From assembly GCA_001782475.1 (NCBI GenBank), contig MFOT01000024.1:42578-106577 (forward strand): a DNA stretch of 64,000 nt. Reading direction: 5' to 3'. The position numbers were made by a program, and so were the translations under genes. Source of the stretch: Candidatus Levybacteria bacterium RIFCSPLOWO2_01_FULL_38_21 (GTDB lineage Bacteria; Patescibacteriota; Microgenomatia; Levybacterales; UBA12049). Below the pieces are notes generated by a model. It saw nothing but the letters and a program-made list of their open reading frames with translations. It did not search any database and was not told where the DNA came from. This document shows positions 6,912 through 61,063 of this stretch, piece after piece (within the stretch, counting starts at the first letter, position 1; every line of letters starts with the position of its first letter).

Positions 6912-9900
6912 ATGAAGTTAAGCAAATTTTTGGCTGTCCCCGCAGTAACTTTTCTATTTTTTGTCTTCTTATCTGGCAGTGCCTATGCTTCTTTCTCTTA
7001 CTCATACGATTCCTCTCCGCCCTCCGCCGACCAGGTAGCTGATTCATTCTGCGCTGGCTCCATCCAGACTTGTTGGAACAGTTCGTCTGTTGGTGTAACA
7101 GATTGTGGAACTGCTTGTACCGGCGGTAACGCCTGGGAAAAGCATGTATATTCAGGCTGTTATTATGTAGCTTTTTTAGGTTATAAGGCATGGCTTCCAT
7201 TTGCATCCGCTACCTGCTCAACCGGGGATAAGTGTACGAGTAGTTGGCCTTATCTAAACGCTGGATATTGCGATTGCTCAGTCGGAGGCATATATAAAAC
7301 CTGCTGTGATACTACGACAGGAAGAGCTGATGGGGCTTGCGTGGCATATGCTGTTGATACCACAAATCCTCCATGGGAAGGTTATTGTCCTGCGGGAACA
7401 GCGACGGAGTTCTGTGGCTTCGGAGGCTATCCTGCCTGCGGAGATGCGGCTTGCGCAAAGTACGCCCCCCCTCCAGATTGTAATACTGGGGTTTCTTGTT
7501 CTGGAGCCTGCAGCGCGCCGGCAAATACCTGCTCTACAAATAATGGAACGCAAACAAGCTGTGTCTATACAGCCTACAGCGGAGGAGGATCCTGCACTCA
7601 AACAACTGCTCCCAACCAACAATGCACAGTTAATAATTGTTCTGCGGGATATACTTGCCAGAGTGGCATTTGTACGGCAGGACCGAATCCTCCTACTGCC
7701 GCAATCAACGGACCCACTTCCATTACACTTGGCCAATCAGGCAGCTTTACTGCAACCGCCAACCAAGACTCAACCAGTTCGCTTGCATCCGGAGAAATTT
7801 ATTGGTCGCCAACCGGTTCTCAATCCTGGACTCTTCTTAATCCCGTAGCTGCGCTTTCGGGCTCAACTGGGTCATTTTCCAGAACGTGGACTCCGACTGC
7901 TACCGGTACTTACTACGTAGTTGTCAACGCTTACAATGTAAATGGCCAACAATGCACAGGTAATCCTTTCGGGATTGATCCCGGCTGGGTTAATTGCGGA
8001 TCAAACGATGCTGTAACTGTCACAGTCACAACTGTAGCAGCAACCCCAACCCCAACTCCCACACCTGCCTCTTCATGCAATGCTGCGTGCATTGCAAGTG
8101 GTTATTATTATGGAATATGCCAAGGTGCATGCGGTGGAAACTATGATGGATCGCCTAGTCAATATGAATGTGCAAGTAATATTGGTGCACCTCTTTGCTG
8201 TTGTTCACGTGTGCCAGCCACTCCAACTCCAACCCCGACTGGCGCTCCAACTCCCACTCCAACTCGAGCTCCCTCAACATACGACATTTCTGGTACTGTT
8301 TGGGTAGATACCAATGGGAATGGGTTTAAGGACATATTAGAAGATGGATTCCAGAGCGCTCGCATAACCATAACCGGCGGTGCTTTTAGGAATACAGACA
8401 ACTCTGGATTTTACCTTTTTTCAAGTCTAGCTTCCGGAACATATACAATTACTCTTACTGTACCTTCTGGCTATATCTTAACCACTTCAAATCCTGTCAC
8501 CAGAACCCTCCCGAACAATGCCACAGCTAATTTTGGGATACAACCCCTATCAACCATCTCTGGAACTGTATTTGTGGACACTAATGGGAGTGGGGCTAAG
8601 GACACAGGAGAACCGGGATACAGCGGGGCTACCCTAACCGGACCCGGCGGTGAGACTGATACTACAGGCGCCAGTGGATCTTACGGTTTTCCAGGTCTAG
8701 CTTCCGGAACCTATACAATTACTCTTACTGTACCTTCTGGCTATATCTTAACCACTTCAAATCCTGTCACCAGAACCCTCCCGCCCGATGCCACAGCTAA
8801 TTTTGGGATAAGATTCAACAAGCCAGACCTGGTTGTCTCAAATCTTAGTGTCCAGTCGGTTGCCGCAGGCCCGATAACACCAAGAGATGGCAGTAGCTTT
8901 GATACCAATGGCGGCTCGGGCGCAAGTTGGTCAAATCCAACCTATGCTCAGACTTCCAATAGCCAGCGCGCCTCTGTTTCACTGGACGGTAATCCCAGTT
9001 CCCGTTATCTTAAGGCTCAAGGCTTTGGTTTTAACATTCTACCCGGTTCTACCATCAATGGTATTCTCGTTGAGGTAGAACGCAGGGCCGAAGAAGAAGG
9101 CTGGGGCGGCAATCCCAGAATAGTAGATGATGTCATCAGACTTGTCAAAGCCGATGGAACAATTGGCGGAAGTAACAGAGCAGGCAGTAGTTACTGGCCA
9201 GAATCGGATGCTTATACAAGCTATGGCTCAGGTACCTACCTGTGGGTCCTAACCTGGACACCGGCCGATATCAATAATTCCAATTTTGGGGTGGCAGTCT
9301 CGGCCAGGAATGAGGGTGATGACGCAATTGCATACATTGACCATATCCGTATCACGGTGTATTTAGCTTCCGAAGCAGGAGAGTCGTTAGAAGCAGTCTT
9401 TACCTTAAAAAATAACAGTTCTATTACCACGCCACCCGGGGTTAATTTTAGGATTGATCTTTGGCCGGACCGCACCAGCTCTCCCAATCTTGGAGAACTA
9501 AGTGATTGTACCCCGACCCCTTGTAAGATAGACCAAACAGAAATGGCCGCCAATGAACAGAGATCCGTGACTATACCTTTCACCGCTCCCTTAACCGCTG
9601 GAACAAAGACGGTCCAAATTTTGGCTGATTCGCCGGACGTCATTGACGAAATGGAGGAGTTAACTAATAATAGGATATCTAAAATCTACTTTGTTACTGC
9701 ACCCCCAACATACACAATTTCTGGAAATGTATTTGTAGACGCCGATAAAAATCGGCTCAAGAATGGAGGGGAGACAAACTACACAGGCGCAATCACTATT
9801 TCCTCAACAGAAGGAACTGTATCTGCTCCCTCTGGTACTGGGGTTTACACTGTAGACGGTTTAATAGAAGGAACATATACAATTTCTTACACAGATCTTC

Positions 9901-10904
9901 CTTCTGGATATCAACTAACATATCCTCTAAACGGTCCCCCGCCCTCTTTTACGGTTACGGTTGGGGCATCTTGTTCTGTTGGCGGTTCAAACAGCGCAAC
10001 TTGCGGTGGAGGAAGCATTTCAAATCTTAACTTTGGCATAACCAATTCAAATCCATGGATCCAGTCAACCTGTACAGATATAAGATTTGATACTGGCTTT
10101 GATGACCCCATACCAATAACCGCTGATCCTGTTCTCTGTGGCGGGCCAAATGCATCTATCAATGCATCTATTTCAGTCGTTTGCACAACTCCGGGAATCA
10201 TTATGTCTGGAGACAGCTCATATTCCTTTGGTCAAGGACAGGCCTCATCTACGAACTGGGTCGTGGGGGGAACTACCTATCCGGAAGTTTTTGCTCCCAC
10301 AAGAGGAGGCGGCTTTGCAACTTCTTACGCATATGTCTTATCTGTTATAAAACAAGCAGGTCTAACACCAACGGATCTTTCAACCGTATGTACCCTTTCA
10401 AACTGCACTTTACCCGCAGGATTTTCTCACGGTCTTTACAAGGCAAATTCTGATCTCTACCTTAACGCTTTTACATTCCTAGCCTCATCAAATTATGTAA
10501 TCTTGGTCAACGGAAATCTCTACATTCGCGGTAAAATCCTCGTACCAAATGGTTCAACCGCAACCTTTATTGTCTCTGGCAACATTTATGTAGACCAAAC
10601 CGTAGGAGAAGCAGTTATTTCATCAACAACCCCTGATATTGAAGGCTTCTATAGTACGGATAAGAGTTTTATAATCCAGGGTACAAACGACTGCATGGTG
10701 GGAGCGGATTTACGACTAAATGTTGCCGGCACAATTGTAGTTAATGCAGGACTTACGGGCGGATCATTCCAAAACTTAAGAGATCTTTGCGGAGGAAATC
10801 TTTCCTGTCCTGTATTTTCGATATCAGAAAGGCCAGATTTTATTCTAAATGCTCCGGAGGTAATAAAAAGACAGAATGCAATTTATCAGGAAGTAGCACC
10901 CTAG
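6912..10904 (+). CDS. giant secreted/cell-surface protein (1330 aa) with Cys-rich N-domain, PT linkers and tandem Cna-B/SdrD-B-like repeats
   Basis: Signal peptide MKLSKFLAVPAVTFLFFVFLSGSAYAS; about 40 Cys in the first 400 aa; linkers ATPTPTPTPASS and PATPTPTPTGAPTPTPT; two near-identical repeats ...SGTYTITLTVPSGYILTTSNPVTRTLP..ATANFGI... (DNA 8404-8530 and 8665-8800). Confidence 0.6.
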   Translation: MKLSKFLAVPAVTFLFFVFLSGSAYASFSYSYDSSPPSADQVADSFCAGSIQTCWNSSSVGVTDCGTACTGGNAWEKHVYSGCYYVAFLGYKAWLPFASATCSTGDKCTSSWPYLNAGYCDCSVGGIYKTCCDTTTGRADGACVAYAVDTTNPPWEGYCPAGTATEFCGFGGYPACGDAACAKYAPPPDCNTGVSCSGACSAPANTCSTNNGTQTSCVYTAYSGGGSCTQTTAPNQQCTVNNCSAGYTCQSGICTAGPNPPTAAINGPTSITLGQSGSFTATANQDSTSSLASGEIYWSPTGSQSWTLLNPVAALSGSTGSFSRTWTPTATGTYYVVVNAYNVNGQQCTGNPFGIDPGWVNCGSNDAVTVTVTTVAATPTPTPTPASSCNAACIASGYYYGICQGACGGNYDGSPSQYECASNIGAPLCCCSRVPATPTPTPTGAPTPTPTRAPSTYDISGTVWVDTNGNGFKDILEDGFQSARITITGGAFRNTDNSGFYLFSSLASGTYTITLTVPSGYILTTSNPVTRTLPNNATANFGIQPLSTISGTVFVDTNGSGAKDTGEPGYSGATLTGPGGETDTTGASGSYGFPGLASGTYTITLTVPSGYILTTSNPVTRTLPPDATANFGIRFNKPDLVVSNLSVQSVAAGPITPRDGSSFDTNGGSGASWSNPTYAQTSNSQRASVSLDGNPSSRYLKAQGFGFNILPGSTINGILVEVERRAEEEGWGGNPRIVDDVIRLVKADGTIGGSNRAGSSYWPESDAYTSYGSGTYLWVLTWTPADINNSNFGVAVSARNEGDDAIAYIDHIRITVYLASEAGESLEAVFTLKNNSSITTPPGVNFRIDLWPDRTSSPNLGELSDCTPTPCKIDQTEMAANEQRSVTIPFTAPLTAGTKTVQILADSPDVIDEMEELTNNRISKIYFVTAPPTYTISGNVFVDADKNRLKNGGETNYTGAITISSTEGTVSAPSGTGVYTVDGLIEGTYTISYTDLPSGYQLTYPLNGPPPSFTVTVGASCSVGGSNSATCGGGSISNLNFGITNSNPWIQSTCTDIRFDTGFDDPIPITADPVLCGGPNASINASISVVCTTPGIIMSGDSSYSFGQGQASSTNWVVGGTTYPEVFAPTRGGGFATSYAYVLSVIKQAGLTPTDLSTVCTLSNCTLPAGFSHGLYKANSDLYLNAFTFLASSNYVILVNGNLYIRGKILVPNGSTATFIVSGNIYVDQTVGEAVISSTTPDIEGFYSTDKSFIIQGTNDCMVGADLRLNVAGTIVVNAGLTGGSFQNLRDLCGGNLSCPVFSISERPDFILNAPEVIKRQNAIYQEVAP

Positions 10905-10916
10905 CGCAAAGCGCTA

Positions 10917-10952
10917 AGGAAATTCTAAACACTAAATCCGAAATCCTAAACA
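10917..10952. repeat. left terminal inverted repeat of a MITE-like element (AAATCCTAAA-type arm)
   Basis: ttctaaacactaaatccgaaatcctaaac is the reverse complement of the arm at 55592-55622 and is inverted relative to 11322-11385. Confidence 0.5.
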
Positions 10953-10959
10953 AATAATA

Positions 10960-11319
10960 ATGGACCAGATCACAAATAATAAACGGTATGACCTAGAAGA
11001 ACGATGCTTAAATTTTGCCAAGAGGGCCAATAAGTATATAAACCATTTACCCAAGACTATTACTAATATCGAAAATGGAAAACAATTAGCAAGATCCGTA
11101 GGATCTGTTGGAGCAAATTATATAGAAGCAAATGAAGCGCTAAGCAAAAAAGATTTCATAATGAGAGCTAAAATTTGCAAGAAGGAAGCTAAAGAAAGCA
11201 GATTTTGGTTTACTCTTTCAGAACCTTTGCAAGGAGAACAAAAAGAAAAAGATCTGCTCATTCAGGAAGCAACAGAACTTATGAAAATCTTTGGATCGAT
11301 TCTTGAAAAATCTAAATAG
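10960..11319 (+). CDS. four helix bundle protein (TIGR02436-like; 23S rRNA intervening-sequence protein family)
   Basis: RSVGSVGANYIEANEALSKKDFIMRAKICKKEAKESRFWFTL is the hallmark of this family. Confidence 0.7.
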   Translation: MDQITNNKRYDLEERCLNFAKRANKYINHLPKTITNIENGKQLARSVGSVGANYIEANEALSKKDFIMRAKICKKEAKESRFWFTLSEPLQGEQKEKDLLIQEATELMKIFGSILEKSK

Positions 11320-11321
11320 TT

Positions 11322-11385
11322 CTGGGATTTGAGGATTTAGAATTTAAATATTGTTTAGTATTTAGATATTAGAATTTAGGATTTA
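11322..11385. repeat. right terminal inverted repeat of the MITE-like element
   Basis: gggatttgaggatttagaatttaaatattgtttagtatttagatattagaatttaggattta matches arms at 55497-55530 and 55590-55622. Confidence 0.5.
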
Positions 11386-12408
11386 ATTAAGATAAGTGAT
11401 TTCTTCCTCTAGTTCCAGCTTGTATTTTTCTTTTATAATCTCTTTTATTTCTCCAATTAAACTTCTTACATCTTCCGATGTCGCGTTGCCAAGATTGACA
11501 ATAAAATTAGGATGCTTTTCGGAGACCATTGCGCCTCCTTGTCTTTTCCCTTTTAAACCTGCTACTGCTAAAAGTTTAGCTGTTGGCAAAATAGGAAAAG
11601 GATCATCTTTTATCGAACTACTTAGTCCTCCTAATAATTTTTGGGGAACTTTTTCGATTGGGATGTTTTTGAAAATACTTCCTATATTTGGGTATTCTAG
11701 AGGATGTCTTTCTTTCCGATAATTGATCTTTTTCTCGATCTGTCTTTTAATTAAATCTTTATTGCCCCCTTGAAGTTTTAATTCCACTGAGATTATAATT
11801 TCACTTTTCCCCTCCCCGTCTTTAAAAATACTTGATCTATACCCAAAATTGCACTCTGAGTTTTTTCTTTTTCTAACCTCGTAGGTTGCGAGATTACCAA
11901 CCTCGTAGGTTGAGAGACTTTCGACTTCGTAAGCACTATCTTTTATTTCCCCTTTAAATGCTCCAGCATTCCCCCTGACAGCGCCGCCGATTGTGCCAGG
12001 AAGACCTCCTGCCCACTCAAGTCCGGATAGACAATTTTGAACACAAAAATTGAGCAAATCCTCCAATAAAACACCGGCGCCGGCTAAAATCTTAATATTG
12101 CCAGCCTCGCCAACCTCGCAGGTTTCGTGCGTGCAACCTGCGAGGTTACAATAACCCAATATCCTGATCTCTTTTATTTTATTGTGAATAACAAGTCCAT
12201 TAAATCCTTTATCGCTTACTAAGACATTCGTCCCCCCACCGAAGATAAACATATCCTGCGAAGGTGATTTTTTTGAGATTTTTTTCCATTGTTTAAGGCC
12301 TTCGATTAACTCCTCAACGCTTGAAACCTTAAGAAGATACTTGGCTCTGCCCCCGATTTTGAAATTGTTGAGGTCTTTTAAAGAGATATCTTTTTGAATC
12401 GAAACCAT
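11383..12408 (-). CDS. murB: UDP-N-acetylenolpyruvoylglucosamine reductase
   Basis: FAD-binding N-terminus (GGRAKYLL...FGGGTNVLV) and MurB C-terminal domain; contains in-frame palindromic insertions (YEVESLSTYEVGNLATYEV; CTHETCEVGEAG). Confidence 0.75.
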   Translation of the reverse strand: MVSIQKDISLKDLNNFKIGGRAKYLLKVSSVEELIEGLKQWKKISKKSPSQDMFIFGGGTNVLVSDKGFNGLVIHNKIKEIRILGYCNLAGCTHETCEVGEAGNIKILAGAGVLLEDLLNFCVQNCLSGLEWAGGLPGTIGGAVRGNAGAFKGEIKDSAYEVESLSTYEVGNLATYEVRKRKNSECNFGYRSSIFKDGEGKSEIIISVELKLQGGNKDLIKRQIEKKINYRKERHPLEYPNIGSIFKNIPIEKVPQKLLGGLSSSIKDDPFPILPTAKLLAVAGLKGKRQGGAMVSEKHPNFIVNLGNATSEDVRSLIGEIKEIIKEKYKLELEEEITYLN

Positions 12409-16424: not shown

Positions 16425-16509
16425 ATCCTTAAAATTTCTAATTACTAATTTCTAATTGACCTAAGCGCTTAGAATAATTAGAGCGATTAGGTTAATTAGG
16501 TCAATTTTC

Positions 16510-20456: not shown

Positions 20457-21394
20457 AACATGTTTTAGTAACAGGCGGCGCGGGTTTTATAGGCGCAAGT
20501 TTAGTTCGAAAGCTTCTTGAAAATGGCGATAAGGTTGTAGTAATTGATAATCTAATTACTTCAAACGGGGAAAGTATTAAACCGCTACTTAAAAATCCCA
20601 ATTTCAAATTTATCAAACGCGACATAATAAAACCTTTGCCTTCATCAATCATCAATCATCAATCATCAATTGGGCATATCTTCCATCTTGCCTGTCCGAC
20701 CGGCGTTCCGAATCTCACAAAACTTGCCAGAGAAATGCTACTTACCTCCGCGATCGGAACAATGAATGTTTTAGAACTTGCCAGAAAACACAAGGCAAAG
20801 TTTATATTCACAAGTTCTTCTGAAGTTTATGGTGATCCCAAAGTTTTTCCGCAGAACGAAAACTATACAGGCAATGTCAGCTCTGTAGGTATTAGAAGTC
20901 CATATGAAGAAGGAAAAAGATTTGCCGAAAGTCTGATTATGACTTACGTTCGAAAATATAATTTGGATGCAAGAATTGTCCGGGTGTTTAATACCTACGG
21001 ACCCCTGATGTCTATTAACGATACGCGCGTTATTCCAAAATTCTTAAAACAAATTAGTAAAAACCAGCCTCTGACAGTTCAAGGAGATGGCAGGCAAACA
21101 AGAACATTTTGTTACGTTGACGATCTAATAAAAGGTTTAGTTCTTCTTATGGACAAGGGGGGGGAGGGCGAAGTTTATAATCTCGGGAGTAACAAAGAAA
21201 TAAGTATAAATACCCTGGCTGGGCTCATGATAAAAATTACAAAATCTAAAAGTAAAACAATAAATATTAGTCGTCCGTCTCATGACCACAACCGCCGTCT
21301 CCCCGACCTGAGAAAAGCAAACAAACTTAATTGGTACACTAAGGTAGGCCTTGATGAAGGTTTAGAAAGGACCGTACGATGGTTTGGGTTTTAG
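20453..21394 (+). CDS. NAD-dependent epimerase/dehydratase (UDP-glucuronate decarboxylase/UXS-like)
   Basis: VLVTGGAGFIGASLVRKL ... PYEEGKRFAE (YxxxK). Contains an in-frame heptanucleotide tandem repeat encoding SSIINHQSSIG. Confidence 0.65.
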   Translation: MKHVLVTGGAGFIGASLVRKLLENGDKVVVIDNLITSNGESIKPLLKNPNFKFIKRDIIKPLPSSIINHQSSIGHIFHLACPTGVPNLTKLAREMLLTSAIGTMNVLELARKHKAKFIFTSSSEVYGDPKVFPQNENYTGNVSSVGIRSPYEEGKRFAESLIMTYVRKYNLDARIVRVFNTYGPLMSINDTRVIPKFLKQISKNQPLTVQGDGRQTRTFCYVDDLIKGLVLLMDKGGEGEVYNLGSNKEISINTLAGLMIKITKSKSKTINISRPSHDHNRRLPDLRKANKLNWYTKVGLDEGLERTVRWFGF

Positions 21395-34807: not shown

Positions 34808-35438
34808 AAACTTGTCTTCCCTCCATAGCCCTTTGAAGTGTTATTTCATCTGCATATTCAATATCTGCTCCAACCGGAAGTCCTCTTCCAATCCTAGTAA
34901 TTGTTAATTGTTGATTGTTAATTGTTGATTGTTCGCGAAATTTTTTCGCGATATACATCGCAGTTGCCTCCCCCTCCATTGTAGGATTTGTTGCTAAAAT
35001 TATCTCTTTAATTCCTTCTTTCTTAAATCCATTTGATGATTCCTTGACTCTTTCCAAGAGTTCTTTTACGTAAATCTCATCCGGCCCGATATTGTTTAAC
35101 GGATCAATTCTTCCATGAAGAACATGATAGACCCCGTTGTATTTTCCGCTTTTTTCAAAAGACAAAACATCCAAAGGGCTTTCAACAACACAAATTGTTG
35201 AGCTGTCTCTTTTTTCATCAGAACAGATATGGCACGGATCGCTTTCCGCAACCAAAAAACAGATTGAACACAAAACTGTATCTCTTTTTAGATTTTGGAC
35301 TGATAAAGAAAACTTGTCCAATTCACCTTGAGGTACATGCAAGAGATAAAAAGTTAAACGCTGGGCAGTCTTAGGACCAATCCCTGGTAATCTCTCGAAA
35401 GATTCAACCAGATTTTGTATTGCTTTTGGAATTTTCAT
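34800..35438 (-). CDS. recR: recombination protein RecR
   Basis: HhH motif (LPGIGPKTAQRL), C4 zinc finger (CSICFLVAESDPCHICSD) and Toprim domain; carries an in-frame heptad-repeat insert TINNQQLTITR. Confidence 0.85.
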   Translation of the reverse strand: MKIPKAIQNLVESFERLPGIGPKTAQRLTFYLLHVPQGELDKFSLSVQNLKRDTVLCSICFLVAESDPCHICSDEKRDSSTICVVESPLDVLSFEKSGKYNGVYHVLHGRIDPLNNIGPDEIYVKELLERVKESSNGFKKEGIKEIILATNPTMEGEATAMYIAKKFREQSTINNQQLTITRIGRGLPVGADIEYADEITLQRAMEGRQVYE

Positions 35439-37595: not shown

Positions 37596-39065
37596 CTAAG
37601 ATTTTAACATAACCGAAACCGGAATTCTTTTTCCGCCGATCTGAAATAGAGCCTTTTCTATTATTTCCTTTGATTTTTTTTCATCCAGTTTTTCTTTGTG
37701 AAATTTAAATCTTGCTTCAATAACGAACTTTTTTTCATTATAACTTTTAAGACTGCAGCCTCTAAGAACTCCGGCAATAGAATGGTTTTGCGATTTAACT
37801 TTATTGATCAGCTCATGCCATAGAGTATTGTTACTTTGCCCATCTGAAGGAGAACTGAACGCCGACTTAGATTTATTTTCGAAATTCTTTTTTTCTGATT
37901 GTCGGCGTTCACTTAGCGAGCGGGGATTTTGTCGAGATTGTAATAAATCATTGCGAGCGTCTCCTGCAGTATGCGGCAAAGTAACAGAAGACTGATCCTG
38001 CGTAGACCACTCTATAATCGCAATCTCCAAAGGCAGCTGGGGTAAAACAGAATATTTAAGTTTTGAATAAGCATTTGTCAATAAATCCATAAGCATTCTG
38101 ATATCCTCAATACTTAGAATATCCATACCTGATTGCTCCCCTGAAACACCAACTTTTACAAGCAGAAGCTCGTGAAGTTTAAGCATAAGCTTCTCTAGGA
38201 AATACTTCATATCAACGCCTGTTGTTGTAATTTTGTCAACAAGAAGCATTGCTTTTTTTACATTTTTTTCGGAAAGAAACTTAATCATTTCCCCTATTTT
38301 ATAATCTAAATTTACCGCCTGATGCATCTTTTCAACCGTCTCTTTTGTAATTTTTTTATTTCCAACCTCCGAATAAATTTCCTCTAAAATTTTTACTCCG
38401 TCTCTAAAACTGCCATCTGAAAATTCCGAAATCTTAAAGAGCGCCTCTTTGTCTACGGAAATCTTTTCTTTTTTGGCAATCCGCAAAAACGCGCGAACAA
38501 GTTCGTTCGCTGTTGCCTTTTTAAAGGCCATATGAAAACAGCGCGACGCAATGGTTTGGGGAACTTTATGAGGCTCAGTCGTGCAAAGTATAAAAATAAC
38601 ATGATTTGGAGGCTCCTCTAGGGTTTTTAACAAGGCGTTAAAGGCCTCTGTTGTAAGCATATGAACTTCATCTATTATGTAAACTTTTTTTAGTGCCTGG
38701 AAAGGAGACAATCTAATCTTTTCCCGAAGGTCTCTTATTTCATCTATTCCCCTGTTTGAAGCTCCGTCTATTTCCAAAACATCTATATTTGTTCCGTTTG
38801 TTATGGAGACACACTGATCGCATTTATTGCATGGCTCAACTGATAACTTACGGCTTTTAGCTGTCTGCTTTTGGTTAAGTTTTTCGCAATTGACCACTTT
38901 TGCAACTATTCGCGCAGCAGAGGTTTTACCAAGACCCTTGGGGCCTGTAAAAAGGAGAGCGTGAAAAGAAGAAGGTCTTGACAAAATATTAGTCAGTTTA
39001 TCTCTGACAACTTCACTATCCAGTTCTTCTATTGTTTGGGGTCTGTACTTGCGGTAAAAAACCAT
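37596..39065 (-). CDS. dnaX: DNA polymerase III subunit gamma/tau
   Basis: YRPQTIEEL ... LFTGPKGLGKTSAARIVAK (Walker A) ... zinc module CNKCDQC. Confidence 0.85.
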   Translation of the reverse strand: MVFYRKYRPQTIEELDSEVVRDKLTNILSRPSSFHALLFTGPKGLGKTSAARIVAKVVNCEKLNQKQTAKSRKLSVEPCNKCDQCVSITNGTNIDVLEIDGASNRGIDEIRDLREKIRLSPFQALKKVYIIDEVHMLTTEAFNALLKTLEEPPNHVIFILCTTEPHKVPQTIASRCFHMAFKKATANELVRAFLRIAKKEKISVDKEALFKISEFSDGSFRDGVKILEEIYSEVGNKKITKETVEKMHQAVNLDYKIGEMIKFLSEKNVKKAMLLVDKITTTGVDMKYFLEKLMLKLHELLLVKVGVSGEQSGMDILSIEDIRMLMDLLTNAYSKLKYSVLPQLPLEIAIIEWSTQDQSSVTLPHTAGDARNDLLQSRQNPRSLSERRQSEKKNFENKSKSAFSSPSDGQSNNTLWHELINKVKSQNHSIAGVLRGCSLKSYNEKKFVIEARFKFHKEKLDEKKSKEIIEKALFQIGGKRIPVSVMLKS

Positions 39066-39146
39066 AAGCTAAGATTTATGATTTATGAATTATGATTTAT
39101 GAATTTTAAAATGGTCAATGGTAAATGATAAATTGTCAATCGTTTG

Positions 39147-40141: not shown

Positions 40142-41089
40142 TTAAATCTTTTCCAATACTTTAATTATTTCTGTCAAAGATAGCTTCGTTGGCTTCATTT
40201 TTGGATTTTTGACAGAGCCGTTTAAAAGCATTTTCCGACCGATATGAAGAAACCAAGTTGCTTGAGGGTCCATTTTTTTTAATCTTTCATAAACTAACGT
40301 CAAATCTATATTCTTGTTGATTGTTGATTGTTGATTGTTGATTGTTGATAAAGGCTTTGCCTTTATCCTAACATACCCTTTTCGCGGGTCTTTGCGAACA
40401 ACAATTACATATCCCATTTTTTGAGACAATTTTATAACGGTGTCATTAATCGTTTCAAAACCTATTCCACGGCCGTACCGCGTTTTAAATTTTTTTCCTT
40501 TTTCTTTAATCTCCCGCTCTGCCCAAATTCTGTTTTCAAATTCGTGCAAAACCGCATCAAGGCATTGCATTACGAAACCTACATAATATTCATCCTGATC
40601 GGGCCTTTGAACCTTAAGTCCATCTAAAATGCCTACTAGAGAAAATTCATGGTAATCCGCCGTTGGGTCTTTCCAAAAAACTTCTTTAAAATGATCAACA
40701 TCCACAACTACCTTAACCATTCTTCCTACAGCTTCCATCCGGTCTTTTACTCCTTCTGAACTCTGAATTCTGAACTCTGAATTCTGAACTCGTTTGACGA
40801 AGTCAAACGTAAGGCTTGCCGCACACACATTTGTATCGGCTACTTGATGATGATCCAAAGGACCAAGGCCCGTATCTACATGAATAACCTCATCATCTCC
40901 TATTTTCTCTATCGCATTGCGCGGGGAGCCCCGCCCGGGCGGGGCGACCTCAGCGCTTTTTCCAATTCGTTCTCCGGCTGGAACGAATCGGACGACCGCA
41001 TCTTCCCATCCCGGTAAAAATCTTTTTATAAGCCAAACAGAAGTTATCGCATCCAAATCCGGCGAACTATGCCCAATTATAATTTTCAT
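40142..41089 (-). CDS. DHH-family phosphoesterase (NrnA-like)
   Basis: MKIIIGHSSPDLDAITS and HVDTGLGPLDHH motifs; contains three in-frame repeat insertions (heptad STINNQQSTINK, ctgaact repeats, GC-rich palindrome). Confidence 0.65.
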   Translation of the reverse strand: MKIIIGHSSPDLDAITSVWLIKRFLPGWEDAVVRFVPAGERIGKSAEVAPPGRGSPRNAIEKIGDDEVIHVDTGLGPLDHHQVADTNVCAASLTFDFVKRVQNSEFRIQSSEGVKDRMEAVGRMVKVVVDVDHFKEVFWKDPTADYHEFSLVGILDGLKVQRPDQDEYYVGFVMQCLDAVLHEFENRIWAEREIKEKGKKFKTRYGRGIGFETINDTVIKLSQKMGYVIVVRKDPRKGYVRIKAKPLSTINNQQSTINKNIDLTLVYERLKKMDPQATWFLHIGRKMLLNGSVKNPKMKPTKLSLTEIIKVLEKI

Positions 41090-41194
41090 AAATTAAACTC
41101 AATAGTAAATGGTCGATTGTAAATTGTCAATTGTTAATTGTCGATGGCGGGGTTGACAAAAATAAAAAAATGAACCAATATATAATTACAGAGT

Positions 41195-43804: not shown

Positions 43805-45232
43805 TTAGAGCCATTTTCGCCCGTCTCTGTCGATAAGCTCTTGTGCTTCTTTTGGACCCCAAGTCCCAGGCGTATAAATTTTCAATTTAGAACCGTCTTC
43901 CTCCCATCCCTTTAAAATTTTTGTTATAAACTCCCAAGAACTTGCCAGCTCATCTGATCTATTAAAAAGCATCTGATCGCCTGAGAAAATGTCGATGAGC
44001 ACTTTCTCGTAAGCTTCCGTCCCTTTTGTCATGAACGATTCTTCATAAGTAAAATGCATATCTGCAGTTTCTAAAGCAAGTTTTGACCCGGGCTTTTTTG
44101 CAATAACTCGAAGATAAATCCCCTCATCGGGCTGAATTTTTATTGTCAACACATTTCCCATCTCAGGGCATCCGTATTCTTTAAACAATATGTGGCAGGT
44201 TTGAAGAAAGACAATTGAAATTGTTACCTCATCTTTTGGCATTTTTTTACCAGCTCTTACATAAAACGGGACTCCTGAGAGTCTTTCTGATTCGATATTG
44301 AACTTAAAAGCAACAAAAGTTTCGGTATTTGAGCCAGGCAATACATCTTTCTCTTTTATATAATCTTGATACTGACCCCTAACTACTTCTTTTGCTACTT
44401 CCTTGGGCTCAATGCATTTTATCGATCTTATTACTCTTGCTCTTTCGTCTCTTAAGTCTTCTTTTGTAAAACTTTTTGGCATTTCCATGCCAACTGCTGC
44501 AATAAGCTGCATCAAATGATTTTGCCCCACATCCCGAAGTATTCCCACTCCGTCAAAAAACTTCCCTCTTGCCTCAACCCCTTTTTTCTCGGCAAATGTT
44601 ATCTGCACATGGTCTATAAAGTTTTTATTCCAAACAGGTTCAAAAATTCCGTTCGCAAAGCGGAAGGCAAGCATATTCTGTAAAGTCTCTTTCCCCAGAT
44701 AATGATCTACTCTAAAGATTTGTTTTTCCTCAAAAATTTTTGAGAGTTTTTTATCTAAAGTTATTGCGGTTTCCAGATCTTTTCCAAAAGGTTTTTCGAT
44801 GATTACACGCGTCCATTTGTTTGATCCCTGACCGCAACCTTCGGCAAGTTCTGTGGATGAGAGAAAATTTAAAATCATTTCATAATTCTCTGGAGGCGTT
44901 GCGAGATAAAAAAATCGAGTGATACAAGCTCCCATTTTCTTATCGAATGAGTTTAATTTTTTAATAAGCCCTAGATATCCTTGCTCTTTTGTAAAATCTC
45001 CTTTTTGATAATAGAGATGCTTTGAAAAATCTGACCATTCCGGCTTTTGAGAAAGTTCCCCAAAATGCTCTCTGAATTCATCATCTGAAAGCTCTCGTCT
45101 TGAAAAACCAACAATATAAAAATCTTTTGGCAAAAAGTTTTGATTAAAAAGAGTAAGAAGAGCCGGCATAAGGCGGTTTTGAGACAAATCTCCGGTTGCG
45201 CCAAAAATAACCATTACAAAAGCTGATTGCAT
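43805..45232 (-). CDS. zwf: glucose-6-phosphate 1-dehydrogenase
   Basis: IFGATGDLS and RVDHYLGKE signatures. Confidence 0.9.
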   Translation of the reverse strand: MQSAFVMVIFGATGDLSQNRLMPALLTLFNQNFLPKDFYIVGFSRRELSDDEFREHFGELSQKPEWSDFSKHLYYQKGDFTKEQGYLGLIKKLNSFDKKMGACITRFFYLATPPENYEMILNFLSSTELAEGCGQGSNKWTRVIIEKPFGKDLETAITLDKKLSKIFEEKQIFRVDHYLGKETLQNMLAFRFANGIFEPVWNKNFIDHVQITFAEKKGVEARGKFFDGVGILRDVGQNHLMQLIAAVGMEMPKSFTKEDLRDERARVIRSIKCIEPKEVAKEVVRGQYQDYIKEKDVLPGSNTETFVAFKFNIESERLSGVPFYVRAGKKMPKDEVTISIVFLQTCHILFKEYGCPEMGNVLTIKIQPDEGIYLRVIAKKPGSKLALETADMHFTYEESFMTKGTEAYEKVLIDIFSGDQMLFNRSDELASSWEFITKILKGWEEDGSKLKIYTPGTWGPKEAQELIDRDGRKWL

Positions 45233-45304
45233 ATTTATAATTTACTATTGACTATATACCATTTTAAATCATAAATGGTCAATGATAAATGGTCAATTAT
45301 ATTT

Positions 45305-46161: not shown

Positions 46162-47298
46162 TTATGGTTTTGGAAGAATTGGCTGGCCAGAGATAAAACG
46201 AATAATATCGCTTAGGGTAATAGCTGCGATTAAGGCAAGAAGAATTGCCATTCCAATTGCGTGCGCATAACTTTCAAATTTTGTAGAAACTTTTCTGCCT
46301 GTTACGGCTTCTATTAGAATAAAAAAAAGTCTTCCCCCATCAAGCGCCGGAATCGGCAAGATATTCAAAATCGCAAGATTCAAAGACAGGAGCGATACAA
46401 AAGATAAAACCGCCAAAGGACCTATTGCTACAAACTGTCCGGTTAATTGAGCAATTCCAACAGGTCCTGCAACTCCTTTTGGCGCTTGTGCATGGACAAG
46501 TAACTGATAAACAATTCCTGCAAGACCCGACAAAATAAGCCAAGAGTATTTAAGAGCTTCTAAGAGCCCTACAAACGGTGCTTGATATAGTGAATATTTT
46601 TTAGTAATAACATTGGAAGTTATTCCTACTCCCATTGGTCCTTGATCGGATGGATAATTTTTTCGCGGAATTACCTCTACATTTCTTTCTTTTTTAGATT
46701 TGTCTAAAACTCTGAGAGCTAATTTCTGCCCTAAATGCTGTTTTGTGACTGATACTAATTGAGAAGGGCTTGTAATTTTTTCACTATTGATAGTAACAAT
46801 CTGATCTCCTGTTTTAAGTCCCGCTTTTTGAGCAGGAGAATCCTTTACTATCTCTGTTATAAAAACCTTATCGCCGGGAGTCTGGACGCCTGATATTCCA
46901 TAAAAATAAGTGAGTATAAAAACTGCTAAAAGAAAATTCATTACAACCCCAGCTATTACAACCAATGCTCTTTGCCAAACAGGTCTTGAGAAGAATGCTC
47001 TTTGAGCATCTTCAACTTTCAACTTTCCACTTTCAACTTTCAACTTTCCGCCGCCAGCGCTGTCTTCTCCGTAAAGTTTTACAAATCCTCCGATAGGCAA
47101 AAAGTTTATTGAATATATTGTTTCTCCTCTTTTTATTCCGAACGCTCGGGGCGGAAGACCAAATCCAAATTCCTCAACTCTTATCCCTAACTTTTTCGCC
47201 ACAAAAAAATGCCCCGCCTCATGTATTAGAACGAGAACCGTCAATATTATCAAAAAAACTAAAATTGTTATTAGCATAAAATTTAAGTCAAAAGGCAA
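46162..47298 (-). CDS. rseP: RIP metalloprotease RseP (site-2 protease, M50)
   Basis: LIHEAGHFFVAKK (HExxH), PDZ domain, LDGG motif; contains an in-frame caacttt heptad repeat encoding GGGKLKVESGKLKVED. Confidence 0.8.
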   Translation of the reverse strand: MPFDLNFMLITILVFLIILTVLVLIHEAGHFFVAKKLGIRVEEFGFGLPPRAFGIKRGETIYSINFLPIGGFVKLYGEDSAGGGKLKVESGKLKVEDAQRAFFSRPVWQRALVVIAGVVMNFLLAVFILTYFYGISGVQTPGDKVFITEIVKDSPAQKAGLKTGDQIVTINSEKITSPSQLVSVTKQHLGQKLALRVLDKSKKERNVEVIPRKNYPSDQGPMGVGITSNVITKKYSLYQAPFVGLLEALKYSWLILSGLAGIVYQLLVHAQAPKGVAGPVGIAQLTGQFVAIGPLAVLSFVSLLSLNLAILNILPIPALDGGRLFFILIEAVTGRKVSTKFESYAHAIGMAILLALIAAITLSDIIRFISGQPILPKP

Positions 47299-47409
47299 AA
47301 GTCAAAGGTCAAAAGTTAAAGTAAAAAGTTAAAAGTTTTTGAATTTTGAATTGCTCTTCGGTCTTGAGCTCAGGGTCGAAAGATAATTTTGAATTTTGCA
47401 TTTTGAATT

Positions 47410-47970
47410 TTAAATTTGGAGGAGTTCTTCTTCTTTTTTCTTCCCCATTCCCTCAATATCTTCCATGAGTTCATCTGTCAGTTTTTGAACTTCTTTTTCC
47501 ATTCTTCCCGCCTCATCTTCTGAGATTGACTTATTGTTTTGCTGTTTTTTAATATCGGCCATTGCCTCATGTCTTACTTGGCGAACCATAATCCTCCCGT
47601 TCTCAAGTTTTTGTTTCATTAAATGGATTAGCTCCTGACGCCTCTCCTCAGATAATCTTGGGATAGAAATTCTTATTATCTGTCCATCAATTACGGGATT
47701 TAAGCCAAGATTTGCTTCAAGAATTCCTTTTTGAATTTCTCCGATTATTGAATGGTCAAAAGGAGTAACAGCGAGGGTCTGCGGATCAGATGTTGTAATA
47801 GTTGTAAGCTCCATTACTTTAAGTCTTTGAGTTGCGCCATATGCATTTATAACTATATTTTCTACAAGAGAAGGGGCTGCCCGCCCGGTTCGAACTGTTG
47901 AAAGATCATTTCTTACAACCTCAAGTATCTTGTTCATTTTTGACCGGGCATCCGCAATTAGCTGATCCAT
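47410..47970 (-). CDS. frr: ribosome recycling factor
   Basis: VRTGRAAPSLVENIVINAYG... characteristic RRF sequence. Confidence 0.9.
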   Translation of the reverse strand: MDQLIADARSKMNKILEVVRNDLSTVRTGRAAPSLVENIVINAYGATQRLKVMELTTITTSDPQTLAVTPFDHSIIGEIQKGILEANLGLNPVIDGQIIRISIPRLSEERRQELIHLMKQKLENGRIMVRQVRHEAMADIKKQQNNKSISEDEAGRMEKEVQKLTDELMEDIEGMGKKKEEELLQI

Positions 47971-50402: not shown

Positions 50403-50768
50403 TTATCCCGCTGACGTTCTTGTGAAGTCAACAATTGTTATTTCATATCCGTCAATTCCGTCAACCCCGATTGATCTTTCATATTCGCCGACATGTTTTA
50501 AGAAATAAGAAGTTTCCTCCAGAGTAGGATTTCCATTAATCAAATGGCTAAGGCATCTGTCAAATTGTTGCCTAGACAATGTTCCATCATTAAACTGTCT
50601 TGCTTGTTCCTTTCTTCTTTCTGCTTTTACCCCCTTACTGTTAGGTCTCCCTAACACCTTATTTGCTGTATCCAAACCTCCTCTGATTCTTCTTTGGTTT
50701 AACGAATGTCCAGCCAAGGGACTTCCGCTTACTCTTATTTCCCATCTTACTTCTTTTGCTCTTGACAT
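50403..50768 (-). CDS. hypothetical protein
   Basis: 121-aa ORF, no motif. Confidence 0.3.
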   Translation of the reverse strand: MSRAKEVRWEIRVSGSPLAGHSLNQRRIRGGLDTANKVLGRPNSKGVKAERRKEQARQFNDGTLSRQQFDRCLSHLINGNPTLEETSYFLKHVGEYERSIGVDGIDGYEITIVDFTRTSAG

Positions 50769-53274: not shown

Positions 53275-53441
53275 GCAACCCTAACAGCGTCTTCCTCCCG
53301 GAAGTCCGTATATTCCTGTCAGATACCCTGCTTTCTCGGTGTGTTTTACTAAAAGAACCTCATCGTCTTTAATAATTAAAACAGCGACAGTCGGGATTAT
53401 TTCTATCATTTATTAAAAATATTAACCGTTGGATTGTAGTG

Positions 53442-53455
53442 ATGTATCAATACAT
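53442..53455. promoter_or_regulatory. candidate operator palindrome ATGTATCAATACAT (downstream of the TrpR-like gene)
   Basis: Part of a 20-nt exact match GTGATGTATCAATACATCAA shared with 61058-61077. Confidence 0.4.
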
Positions 53456-53464
53456 CAATATGAG

Positions 53465-53851
53465 TTAGCTAAACCATCTTTTTACGAATTTTGAACCACC
53501 GTACGGTCCCTTTTTTAGAAAGTCTTTCTTTTCTCTATCCATTTGTTTTTCTATTCTTTCTAAAGCTAGAATAATTCCGCCCTCTCCCTCTTCAATTATT
53601 CTTTTCATCCTCGAAACGGTTTGAGTACTTGTTTTTGCTTTCAATGCAACAGTTCTTAAGTCCAGACCTTTTATCAAAAGGCTTGCTATGTGCCATCTTC
53701 TTTTTAGCATTCGAAGCTCAGATTTTGTCAGGATATCTTTTAAAAATTTTTTAATTTCCTCCGTATCTTTTAAAGAATTTATAATCTCATAGAGAAAATG
53801 AATCTCTCTAAAATAATCTTCATTTTGAATTTCCTCCCTTGGTTTTGACAT
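53465..53851 (-). CDS. TrpR-like (YerC/YecD family) DNA-binding protein
   Basis: LTKSELRMLKRRWHIASLLIKGLDLRTVALKAKTSTQTVSRMKR fits the Trp-repressor-family HTH. Confidence 0.55.
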   Translation of the reverse strand: MSKPREEIQNEDYFREIHFLYEIINSLKDTEEIKKFLKDILTKSELRMLKRRWHIASLLIKGLDLRTVALKAKTSTQTVSRMKRIIEEGEGGIILALERIEKQMDREKKDFLKKGPYGGSKFVKRWFS

Positions 53852-53895
53852 AAAATAATTATACCAATAACTTATAGCCTATCAATTTTGTTTCC

Positions 53896-53909
53896 ATGTA
53901 TCAATACAT
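53896..53909. promoter_or_regulatory. candidate operator palindrome ATGTAT-CA-ATACAT (upstream of the TrpR-like gene)
   Basis: Inverted repeat with 2-nt spacer; identical copies at 53442-53455 and 61064-61077. Confidence 0.45.
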
Positions 53910-53985
53910 CATTATAGTATCACAACAAAACAAACGATAATAGTTCTAAAAAATACAAGGAGTATTCGAACTAAATCGCAAAATT

Positions 53986-54954
53986 TCAGAAGCCTCCGAC
54001 AACTGTGACTTCTCCTTTGATTGGAGGGTGGGAATCATATCCTTCCAAAGTGAAATCTTCAAATTTTATATCGTCTATGTCTTTTAATTTTGGATTGATT
54101 TTCATTTTGGGAAACGGCCGTGGTTTTCTTTTAATTTGCTCTTTGACCTGATCAAAATGATTGCTGTAGATATGCGCATCTCCAAAGGTGTGAACGAAAT
54201 CCCCGGGAGGATAACCCGTCAGATGGGCAAAAATCATCGTAAAAAGCGCATAGCTTGCTATATTAAACGGAACGCCCAAAAAAAGATCAGCGCTTCTTTG
54301 ATATAGCTGGCAGGAAAGCCGGCCATTTATTACATTAAACTGGAAAAGCGTATGGCAGGGCGGAAGAGCAACCGATTGTCCCGGCTTTGCCATTTCATAT
54401 ACAAACTCCGGATTCCAGGCAGAAATTACAATATGCCGCCTCTCCGGTGTTTTTTTTATCTTTTGAATCGCCCATTTTACCTGATCGATTTTCCGCCCAT
54501 CTGATGCCGGCCATCTTCTCCACTGGACTCCATAAACAGGCCCCAATTCTCCATATTTTTTAACAAACGGATGATCGGATGATGAGCTTTTTATTTTTAC
54601 AACATACTCTTCCTGCGTCAATATTTTTGAGTTTTGAGTTTTGAGTTTTGAGTTTTGGGCTACTTTGTAGCCCTTGTATCCCCATTCATCCCAAATATGA
54701 ACATCGTTATCAACTAGATATTTTATATTTGAATCGCCTCTTAAAAACCAGATCAACTCATGCAAAATTCCCCTAAGAAAAACTTTTTTCGTAGTCAAAA
54801 GAGGAAAACCGGTTGATAAATCAAAGCGAATTTGCCTTCCAAAAACACTCCTAAACGTTATTCCGGAATTAAACTCATGCTTCTCAAACCCATTTTCCAT
54901 GACATCTGTAAGTAAATCTAGATATTGATATTCCGGATGAAGATTTTTTTTCAT
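53986..54954 (-). CDS. thyA: thymidylate synthase
   Basis: [25 protein letters not shown] (catalytic Cys); in-frame ttttgag heptad-repeat insertion ([11 protein letters not shown]). Confidence 0.9.
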
Positions 54955-55490
54955 ACTTGTTTCTCTCTTTTTAGCACGCTAACGCGTCCTCCCTGCCACT
55001 GACCACGATATAAACTTCCTCCACCCAAAACCTGCTCAAATTGGGCGTGAACAAACCGTGCTCCCATCTCAATTGCAACCGGAATAGGCCCTTCATTTTT
55101 AAGCCCGAACGTTAATTTTCCTTTATATCCGGGTGCGACATTTCCCGTCCTTAGGAAAAGACCCGATCGAAAAGTCGTTGTCCTTGGCTTAAAATTAATT
55201 GTGATATCAAACGGCGTATTCACGCTTTCTATTGTCGTGACAAGATAAAAATCCCCAGGCTTGATTAAAATACTCCTGTTCTCTCCCTCTACATATTTTT
55301 CAACAAGCTTGATATCTGCGGTTTTACGGTGGGTTTCTCCAAGGAAAGCATCGCCCGAAATTTTATAGACTTCTCCAAGTCTCAAATCAAATCCGGCACC
55401 TTCAGGATTCTCAAGCTCTCTTTTGGATAAACCCTCGACGAGTTTTTTCGTCTTTACTAATTGCAATAATTTTCTCGGCCCAAGTACCAT
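54951..55490 (-). CDS. dCTP deaminase/dUTPase-fold protein (divergent Dcd paralog)
   Basis: [42 protein letters not shown] matches the dUTPase-superfamily beta-barrel motifs. Confidence 0.6.
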
Positions 55491-55496
55491 AAATGC

Positions 55497-55622
55497 TAAA
55501 TTCTAATATCTAAATCCTAAATAAATTCCAATTTTCAAGATAGCAAATTCGAAACAGTTTTGTATTTATAAATTGTGATTTTGATATTATTTAGGATTTC
55601 GGATTTAGTGTTTCGAATTTAC
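55497..55622. mobile_element. empty MITE-like element (paired inverted repeats, no cargo)
   Basis: Arms ctaaattctaatatctaaatcctaaata (left) and tttaggatttcggatttagtgtttcgaattt (right) match the arms flanking the four-helix-bundle gene at 10917-11385. The right arm supplies the last 9 codons and the stop of tmk. Confidence 0.5.
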
Positions 55623-56283
55623 CGATAATATCGGCTGTTACTTTCTCCTGCGACCTTTCTCCATCTATCGCAGTTATTTCTTTAGAAAATTTCTTTGCGA
55701 TCCAGTCATATCCTGCTTTTATATTTTTAAGTTTTTCCGCTGTTTCGTAATATTCCTGTTTCTTTCTCATTTTAGAAAGTCTTGATATTGCAGTAGTCTC
55801 TGAGACATTAATATAAAAAGTTACATCCGGAACTATAAACTGGTGGTACATAGAAATAATGCTTTCCGAAACTAGAAGAATTTCTTCATTTTTTAATTTA
55901 TGCAGGTCTTCTTTTTTGTCTGAAATCCCATATGCAACTGACGACCAAAAACATCTATCCGAAATTACGATTCTACCTTTTTGAAGTGGTGGCTCAACAA
56001 CAGTTTTCATATGAATCGCTCGGTCTGCAGCAAAAAGGTATTGAACAGAGACCGGTGGCAGATCTATCTTTTCTTGTATAAAATCGTGAATTAGAGTCCC
56101 TATTGGAGGGATGTTTGTAGGTTCTTTTGTATAAACTACCTTCTTTTTTTTATCTTCGAAGTATTTTTTTAAAATAGAAGCTTGAGTTGTTTTACCAACC
56201 CCATCTATTCCTTCAAAAGCAACATAAACCCCTTTATATGGATTTTTTCTAAGCTCGATATCAAAAGAAACATGATGCTTCAT
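55591..56283 (-). CDS. tmk: thymidylate kinase
   Basis: VAFEGIDGVGKTTQ P-loop, DR(C/Y) motif. Confidence 0.85.
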   Translation of the reverse strand: MKHHVSFDIELRKNPYKGVYVAFEGIDGVGKTTQASILKKYFEDKKKKVVYTKEPTNIPPIGTLIHDFIQEKIDLPPVSVQYLFAADRAIHMKTVVEPPLQKGRIVISDRCFWSSVAYGISDKKEDLHKLKNEEILLVSESIISMYHQFIVPDVTFYINVSETTAISRLSKMRKKQEYYETAEKLKNIKAGYDWIAKKFSKEITAIDGERSQEKVTADIIGKFETLNPKS

Positions 56284-61031: not shown

Positions 61032-61063
61032 ATTTTACTTTAATGTACCGGATATCTGTTGTG

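Follow-up and report, generated by a model that had tools for sequence, protein, structure and literature searches.

We analyzed a 64,000-nt stretch (the window) of a 106.9-kb groundwater metagenome contig from Candidatus Levybacteria RIFCSPLOWO2_01_FULL_38_21, a member of the Microgenomates in the candidate phyla radiation (CPR), in which a gene for a four-helix-bundle protein lies between two inverted arrays of 7-nt units (site 1), and a closely similar pair of arrays without a gene occupies the spacer between tmk and a dcd-like gene (site 2). We favor, with a probability of about 0.55, the reading that the two sites belong to a large family of palindromic heptad-array elements that spans phyla and is of one kind with the intervening sequences (IVSs) of the S23p type known from rRNA genes, with arms that would serve as recognition units for a ring-shaped protein. 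The two sites are linked by their sequence. The 31-mer TTTAGGATTTCGGATTTAGTGTTT[A/C]GAATTT occurs exactly twice in the window, at 10920-10950 on the minus strand and 55590-55620 on the plus strand, with 30/31 positions identical and no occurrence expected from 100 shuffles; the second arm, TTTAG[T/G]ATTTAGATATTAGAATTTAG[G/C]ATTTA, is identical at 30/32 positions between the sites and lies in the same relative orientation. An earlier note on this DNA had reported that the inverted arms round the TIGR02436-type gene recur at a second site and that the shared arm is near-identical there. Both statements are borne out, the second copy extending over 55491-55621 with arms that enclose 62 nt, while its description of the arms as rich in AGGATTT is correct and can be refined to degenerate tandem arrays of 7-nt units. 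The components of the two elements are as follows:

10902..10916, + strand: hairpin TAGCGC-AAA-GCGCTA just 5' of the site 1 left arm (sequence and minimum free energy (MFE) fold)
10919..10953, + strand: site 1 left outer arm, five heptads GAAATTC TAAACAC TAAATCC GAAATCC TAAACAA (read from the sequence)
10946-10953, + strand: junction motif CTAAACAA, closing the site 1 left outer arm
10960..11319, + strand: gene for a four-helix-bundle protein of 119 aa, PF05635/TIGR02436 (profile matches)
11320..11385, + strand: site 1 right arm, with T-rich inner heptads at 11320-11350 and then the junction TTGTTTAG at 11351-11358
within 11320..11385, + strand: outer heptads of the site 1 right arm, TATTTAG ATATTAG AATTTAG GATTTA
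55491..55524, - strand: site 2 right arm (element orientation), TTATTTAG GATTTAG ATATTAG AATTTAG CATTT
55525..55586, - strand: site 2 interior, 62 nt, without an open reading frame (ORF)
55587..55621, - strand: site 2 left arm (element orientation), AAATTCGAAACACTAAATCCGAAATCCTAAATAA (read from the sequence)
55622..55634, - strand: weak hairpin CCGAT-ATT-ATCGG in the tmk codons ADIIG just before the left arm, of uncertain membership in the element

The left array is built of units of the form C-(T/G)-A-A-A-n-n, followed by the junction CTAAACAA and a few A-rich inner heptads. The right array mirrors it, with T-rich inner heptads, the junction TTGTTTAG and then heptads of the form n-n-T-T-T-(A/C)-G, and the center is either a loop of ~60 nt (site 2) or the four-helix-bundle gene (site 1). 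At site 1 this gene is placed between a gene for a 1330-aa surface protein (6912-10904) and a convergent murB, whose stop codon (11383-11385) is held by the final unit of the right arm; the start codon and first ~8 codons fall in the A-rich inner left array. The product matches both PF05635 (23S_rRNA_IVP; 44.6 bits, cut-off 33.8) and TIGR02436 (four helix bundle protein; 67.4 bits, cut-off 24), and its nearest solved structure is PDB 2RLD (E = 1.4e-9), an entry with five chains. The site 1 arms are inverted over 39 nt with 74% complementarity, reaching 83-88% in sub-arms of 17-18 nt, and those of site 2 over 26-49 nt with 71-81%. At site 2 the left arm supplies the last nine codons of tmk (KFETLNPKS) and its TAA stop (55591-55593), as had been claimed: the tmk ORF (55591-56283, minus strand) continues through the arm sequence, its end reading ...GGT AAA TTC GAA ACA CTA AAT CCG AAA TCC TAA. 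The core of Tmk in relatives ends at about ...DII, the tails beyond it varying by lineage. On the other side the right arm touches the ATG (55488-55490) of the downstream dcd-like gene. The site 2 interior agrees at 13/15 positions with the codon 5-9 region of the site 1 gene and has a 9-nt match near the 3' end of that gene; as this similarity is weak (reached in 35/1000 and 152/1000 shuffles; p ~0.035 and 0.15), we rejected the idea that site 2 is an internal-deletion derivative of a gene-bearing copy. The counterpart of the weak hairpin at 55622..55634 in L220 (L001-L230 label loci and contigs from other genomes compared with the window) would pair through G-U alone.

To see how widely such arms occur, a 19-mer common to both window copies was searched in one genome per species. 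It was found in more than 119 stretches, where by our estimate ~4 would be expected, showing that the arms are not confined to the two window sites. Its hosts include Patescibacteria, Saccharibacteria, Omnitrophota, WOR-3, Planctomycetota, Nitrospirota, Chloroflexota, Deltaproteobacteria and others; several matches lie on contigs of 0.1-1.2 Mb, and some on contigs with archaeal marker genes (L032 encodes an archaeal-type MoaA scoring above the equivalog cut-off). The archaeal copies L032 and L061 are complete two-armed elements. Some metagenome-assembled genomes (MAGs) have several copies, and some matches are close to contig ends. Conservation reaches past the 19-mer and keeps the 7-nt register. 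An inverted partner arm accompanies 60 of the 117 listed loci, as against 3 in shuffled controls, and lies at most 200 nt away in 52 of these 60; hence, the usual form of the element is a gene-less palindrome of 100-200 nt like that of site 2. The four-helix gene is present in two of the listed loci. No recurrent alternative cargo was recognized, the loci without a partner arm mostly abutting ordinary genes or sitting in-frame within them. Viral vectors for the element were likewise rejected, 2.9 million viral contigs having yielded two matches of the 19-mer and no relative of the four-helix gene.

The coupling between arms and gene becomes apparent when the family is approached from the protein. 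This has more than 8000 detectable homologues, the best 120 of which (67-94% identity) come from several CPR lineages, mostly on contigs of ~1 kb. We picked 80 metagenome loci by similarity of the four-helix protein alone (55-75% identity), 73 of which could be evaluated. Inverted arms, accepted in a locus when their score exceeded that of all 20 shuffles, were detected in 61 of the 73, with on average 48 nt aligned at 77% complementarity, and junction motifs stood on both sides in 44. Nearly all share one layout: left heptads, CTAAACAA, an ATG within A-rich inner heptads (the typical start region ATGACCAAAATTCAAAA giving MTKIQNSK), the ORF, and directly after its stop GTTTTGAA..., then TTGTTTAG and the right heptads. 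Each arm has four to five outer heptads, the ends of the elements being AAATYC...GRATTT. On the left, 27 of 41 loci have a co-oriented upstream ORF whose stop falls from ~50 nt ahead of the element's end to 15 nt within it, most often 5-20 nt ahead; on the right, a convergent ORF terminates at the element's end in 15 of 41. Elements were also found after the 3' ends of tRNAs and at helix tips of 23S rRNA, showing that they occupy places that tolerate extra sequence.

A link to rRNA intervening sequences had been suspected, and two of the loci picked by the 19-mer (L059 and L114) indeed lie inside 23S rRNA genes. The rRNA copies are insertions near E. coli 23S positions 640-655, 1700-1745 and 1880, flanked by short GC-rich triloop hairpins, each an inverted copy of the other; such terminal hairpins were considered as a defining feature and rejected, being present in the intergenic gene-bearing copies only at the control rate. 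The IVS of Coxiella burnetii is a 428-nt 'selfish' element in helix 45 of 23S rRNA, with an S23p (PF05635) ORF in the loop of an inverted-repeat stem that RNase III cuts, and with the heptamer GACAGAT repeated two to three times in tandem shortly before the ATG (PMC4990558). Thus, a gene in a palindrome with heptamers is an already known object inside rRNA. The same features recur in the window: at both sites the inverted repeats can form a stem and the arms pair in MFE folds, and at site 1 the PF05635 ORF occupies the loop with the five heptads of 10919-10953 a short way upstream of its start. Site 2 lacks the ORF, and both copies lie outside rRNA, between the surface-protein gene and murB and between tmk and dcd respectively. 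23S_rRNA_IVP ORFs are likewise on record from a survey of insertions in CPR rRNA (10.1101/2024.02.27.582315). In the open-access literature that we covered we found no description of such elements between ordinary genes, of the conserved heptad architecture or of abundant gene-less forms, and a literature search by sequence strings returned nothing relevant; these three aspects therefore appear undescribed.

Comparison with relatives shows that both window copies are old residents with orthologs in sister Levybacteria. For site 1, orthologs are present in L223/L224, whose four-helix protein is 91% identical, and in L225 (79%), all with the same order of surface-protein, four-helix and murB genes. 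The identity of MurB in these loci is only 70% and 55%, so that the four-helix protein is more strongly constrained than its essential neighbor. For site 2, the ortholog is in L220, where Tmk is 77% identical and both the arm and the tail that it encodes recur. The dcd-tmk-dcd-thyA operon is kept in the further relatives L222, L221, L219 and L218, but the tmk-dcd site differs: in L222 and L221 it shows nothing beyond a right-arm-like array, which encodes tails such as DLRFKN*, in L219 it is occupied by a heptad palindrome that is AT-rich and degenerate, and in L218 there is no array. As regards polymorphism among relatives, to which the earlier note had looked for support, this site is full, truncated, degenerate or empty in them, but no clean pair of filled and empty sites was recovered. 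Contigs of strains with an identical four-helix or Tmk protein (L001-L017) were rejected as evidence on insertion, both sites being identical in them. The identity break of L002 lies inside murB and is uninformative in this respect, as is L007, from another sample, which on comparison with 9905-11513 of the window is identical up to 11391, just past the right arm, and then ~75% identical in murB, its scaffold containing Ns and perhaps being chimeric.

The two arms of site 1 have different affinities. Its right arm follows orthology (37/38 with L223), whereas the left arm is closer to site 2 of the window and of L220 (33/38 with each) than to its own orthologs (31/38 and 29/38), those of L223 and L225 being 34/38 alike. 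Given that the left arm matches the site 2 lineage and the right arm the orthologs, the simplest reading of the near-identical left arms is a sequence exchange (gene conversion) between resident copies in this lineage, and not a recent transposition. Turnover was also observed in another organism, among strains with 99-99.8% identical T2SSE and T2SSF, which have different elements in the spacer between these genes: L230 has a ~140-nt gene-less element of the AAATCC type, and L228 and others have a different 113-aa PF05635 gene within inverted arrays (nAGAATT)n...(AATTCTn)n. This site shows one element replacing another at a fixed position, though it does not reveal the mechanism, and it shows that heptad arms of different sequence go with different PF05635 subfamilies.

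What the arms conserve was addressed with 45 junction-anchored arm pairs, in which the covariation of the named helix exceeds that of shuffles. The signal is confined to the T/G position of each heptad, and since non-partner units agree equally well, this position is an element-wide mark of CTAAA-type versus CGAAA-type subfamilies; we accordingly rejected pair-specific covariation of the arms. At the two or three variable positions per heptad, pairing is no better than chance in gene-bearing elements, and in 55 gene-less elements it is below chance (0.304 versus 0.361; 998/1000 shuffles higher). The arms conserve the heptad core sequence, not pairing. The presence of a five-base core every seven bases, with free spacers, suggests tandem protein-recognition sites, while the avoidance of perfect palindromes is also as expected for stability at the DNA level.

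These results bear on the strongest of the rival explanations, namely that the elements are host regulatory RNAs, i.e. intercistronic hairpins acting as processing, stability or termination signals, with a tmk/dcd signal at site 2 and, at site 1, a role in insulating the four-helix gene; whether the elements were once selfish or mobile would then not matter today. The positions of the elements after co-oriented stops (27/41) and touching convergent gene ends (15/41) would fit such a role, as would the site 2 right arm adjoining the dcd start codon, the retention of site 2 in L220 and the cutting of the Coxiella IVS stem by RNase III (PMC4990558). Further, the hairpin at 10902..10916 contains the TAG stop of the surface-protein gene and is preserved by compensatory changes in all three site 1 orthologs (TAGCCC-GAA-GGGCTA in L223 and TTAAACC-GTC-GGTTTAA in L225); across the family such a hairpin is present in 5/47 loci, which is about the control rate. 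Nevertheless, we consider a purely host-regulatory role unlikely, given the lack of pair-specific covariation, the avoidance of pairing at variable positions and weak folding z-scores. Scans for promoter and terminator consensus sequences showed nothing enriched, neither site matched Rfam 15 at the gathering threshold, and at a relaxed threshold family members gave only sub-threshold matches to microRNA precursors. The site 2 element can be truncated, degenerate or absent (L222, L221, L219, L218) with the operon unchanged, and the same elements are present in rRNA and in-frame inside ORFs.

A more deflationary alternative is that there is no element, the arrays being independent slippage products in AT-rich intergenic DNA that are alike through mutational bias and selection for terminator-like hairpins. 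In many prokaryotic genomes heptanucleotides make up the commonest class of repeats, and they have been ascribed to slippage (PMC4679880). Using Tandem Repeats Finder and our own period scan with shuffled sequence as control, we detected 14 period-7 arrays in the window as against ~0.1 in shuffles, other periods giving ~0-4 arrays and periods 5, 6 and 8 essentially none. Several lie inside ORFs (20633-20679, 34892-34938, 40303-40358, 40751-40796, 47005-47059 and 50598-50631) and have unrelated units (TCATCAA, TAATTGT, TTGTTGA, TCTGAAC, TTCAACT), suggesting a general heptamer expansion in this genome that tolerates in-frame insertions. Moreover, thyA (53986-54954, minus strand) has an in-frame heptamer array at 54617-54666, CAAAACT on the coding strand, with 4.7 copies in the window and 1.7 in the strain contig L011, a difference of exactly three units (21 nt, 7 aa) in what is a variable K/N-rich loop in the ThyA of relatives. 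Slippage alone is nonetheless an improbable source of the family: an ordered, mirrored architecture with one and the same 5-nt core is seen in different phyla and in archaea, arrays keep to four to five units, the degenerate units follow an identical order at both window sites, the arrays are tightly associated with one protein subfamily down to its start codon, and non-homologous elements swap between 99%-identical flanks.

The weakest account, a classic miniature inverted-repeat transposable element (MITE) moved by cut-and-paste through a transposase acting in trans, with a captured gene at site 1, an empty copy at site 2 and a recent transposition between them, can draw on the inverted ends AAATYC...GRATTT, the small size, the several copies per genome in some MAGs, the matches near contig ends, as with assembly-breaking repeats, and the near-identical arms at sites 44 kb apart, but is very improbable: the flank matches of 46 loci are distributed as in re-paired controls and so show no target-site duplications, the neighbors of the copies include no transposase domains and the larger form encodes PF05635 alone, the supposed cargo is the rule and not a capture (61/73), both window copies are conserved orthologously with the left arm alone exchanged and the right following orthology, and the arms are periodic, imperfect arrays of four to five heptads in place of ordinary terminal inverted repeats. 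Accordingly, the contrast that the earlier note drew between loaded and empty versions survives as one between gene-carrying and gene-less members of a single inverted-repeat family, whereas the MITE label, the target-site duplications sought in its support and recent loading or unloading do not.

Returning to the heptad-array family related to S23p-type IVSs, we propose that a multimeric nucleic-acid-binding protein recognizes the heptad cores as its units, the most plausible candidate being the ring-shaped four-helix-bundle protein that the element itself encodes. According to PMC4990558 (citing Lin et al. 2006) the family forms a homopentameric toroid, the pentamer being reported for the Xanthomonas homologue. 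Binding to the arrays would control the protein's own translation, an autoregulation made plausible by the start codon lying inside the array. The protein might also act in trans on gene-less copies, either influencing neighboring cistrons or aiding the copying of arms and gene between sites. When transcribed, the arms may fold into an interrupted A-U-rich stem that, by analogy with the rRNA-borne relatives, RNase III could cut. A bolder version, in which the heptads are binding sites of the ring protein, one per subunit, the protein and arrays form a hitherto unrecognized self-propagating module in Bacteria and Archaea, the gene-bearing form supplies the protein, the far more numerous gene-less palindromes are its non-autonomous partners and rRNA IVSs are copies that landed in rRNA helices, strikes us as doubtful.

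Several points weigh against our preferred interpretation. Binding, processing and mobility are all steps that we infer, and the match between four to five heptads per arm and a pentamer is numerology at present. Both sites fold modestly better than shuffles (z = -1.5 and -2.5), and the right arm of L225 is a TTTG-type array poorly complementary to its own left arm. As unrelated heptamer arrays are common in this genome, lie in ORFs and vary by slippage, some features could reflect a general mutational process. Finally, the protein-picked loci sample one subfamily of PF05635, and the taxonomic names of the family loci are those of MAG bins.

Among known systems the closest are the S23p-type IVSs of Leptospira, Coxiella burnetii, Brucella and Haemophilus (Warrier et al. 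2016, PMC4990558), which likewise carry a PF05635 ORF in the loop of an inverted-repeat stem, lack a strong ribosome-binding site and have a sporadic distribution suggesting horizontal spread. The elements described here differ in lying between protein genes, in having long ordered arrays, made up of four to five outer heptads and further inner ones, in which junction motifs are present and the C-K-A-A-A core is conserved, in the predominance of gene-less forms and in a spread that takes in CPR, Planctomycetota, Omnitrophota and archaea; their protein is strongly conserved, whereas the Coxiella ORF has been described as decaying. MITEs are similarly small, AT-rich and multi-copy with inverted ends, without a transposase and often next to genes, but in the present elements target sites are not duplicated and no related parent encodes a transposase, the copies in the window persist stably at orthologous positions, a four-helix-bundle gene is part of the larger form and the arms consist of heptads in periodic array. 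Avd, which serves diversity-generating retroelements (DGRs) as an accessory protein, shares the four-helix-bundle fold and the PF05635 family with the site 1 protein and is a pentamer that binds nucleic acid and the reverse transcriptase. Unlike in DGRs, the Pfam lists of neighbors on the source contig show no reverse transcriptase domain within 10 kb on either side of the window gene and no template/variable repeat pair is seen beside it, and flanking heptad arrays are not a DGR feature. A functional analogy might be drawn with TRAP, a ring-shaped homo-oligomer (11-mer) of unrelated fold that reads tandem (G/U)AG motifs with non-conserved spacers, wraps RNA and controls expression, its motif-and-spacer pattern resembling the heptad core with a 2-nt spacer. 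Prokaryotic heptanucleotide repeats are also represented by the cyanobacterial short tandemly repeated repetitive (STRR) sequences. Another case is the TAACTGA repeats of Beggiatoaceae (PMC4679880). Both kinds resemble our arrays in being tandem 7-nt units, mostly intergenic, near start codons and variable in copy number, with regulatory roles proposed for them, but they are direct repeats of one unit and not two inverted ordered arrays of core and variable spacers with an embedded gene.

Where rRNA intervening sequences come from and what their four-helix-bundle ORF does have been questions since the early 1990s, and the idea that the IVS ORF serves mobility reportedly dates back to Ralph and McClelland (1993). 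Among the 'function unknown' families of uncultivated bacteria, that of this ORF is one of the largest. Our results present the rRNA-borne IVS as a special case of an element that lies mainly between ordinary genes, is usually gene-less and ranges from CPR to archaea, making the function of the S23p/four-helix family and the origin of IVSs approachable by experiment; a module of ring protein and heptads, if real, would give this 30-year-old protein a function and explain where IVSs come from. The arrays also supply stop codons and C-terminal tails to neighboring genes, occur in-frame inside housekeeping genes and probably break metagenome assemblies.

Several further observations concern individual copies. 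In L023, L079, L088, L116 and L132 an AAATCC-type array lies in-frame within long ORFs, translated as ...ILNPKSEILN...; as we read them, these ORFs look like those of housekeeping proteins, for instance an aminoacyl-tRNA synthetase, a topoisomerase, a primase and TruB. The element loops of L061 (Halobacteriota) and L036 (Nitrosotalea) are homologous over ~50 nt (…ATGACA[A/G]AAATA[A/G]CGAAG…CTTTCTTTAGAAA…), and the Nitrosotalea copies L026 and L036 have a second, GC-rich repeat (…GGGGCTCTGCCCCACGACCCCGCA…CCCTGTAAGGGCTTA) nested in the arms. One Pirellulales MAG (L034, L075, L090, L095) contains at least three copies of a longer repeat, …GGCCGCAACCAAATCCGAAGCA[arm]…AAACAAACCATAACGTCTTATTTCGACGGTGGTTATGGCAGCCGGATTCC…, in which sequence on both sides of the left arm is common to the copies, making it a multi-copy variant. 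At the T2SSE-T2SSF site the last eight T2SSE codons (L228 3590-4070 compared with L230 3075-3250) encode the same peptide with six synonymous differences, and in each allele the 3' end of T2SSE forms a perfect hairpin with downstream sequence (GAGTAATTCGAGAAT-AA-ATTCTCGAATTACTC and GCGGGTTATTC-GG-GAATAACCCGC).

Elsewhere in the window there are intergenic, roughly inverted pairs of heptamer arrays at 16427-16509, 39064-39145, 41105-41151, 45232-45301, 47282-47423 and 62934-63000, with unit pairs such as AATTTCT/AATTAGG, GATTTAT/AAATGGT, AAGTCAA/AATTTTG and AACAATT/GTTAATT; these may be gene-less elements of other subfamilies. The last of them closely follows a 16S rRNA gene on its downstream side, and the 3' end of this gene occupies ~63060-64000 (minus strand; AAGGAGGTGATCC...). 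This gene contains an ORF with a LAGLIDADG domain (63316-63831; Pfam lists of the source contig) and a match to group II intron D1-D4 (63773-63851), indicating that it carries insertions, as is typical of CPR. The thyA of L013 is broken by a single-base change creating a stop. An intergenic palindrome at 59619-59688, after a gene ending at 59618, is made of 9-nt units (AATACTACC ... TATTTGTAG), a period unlike the rest. Lastly, the palindrome (G)ATGTATCAATACATC has three intergenic copies (~53441-53456, 53895-53910 and 61062-61077), two of which flank a TrpR-like gene (53465-53851), and may be an operator site.

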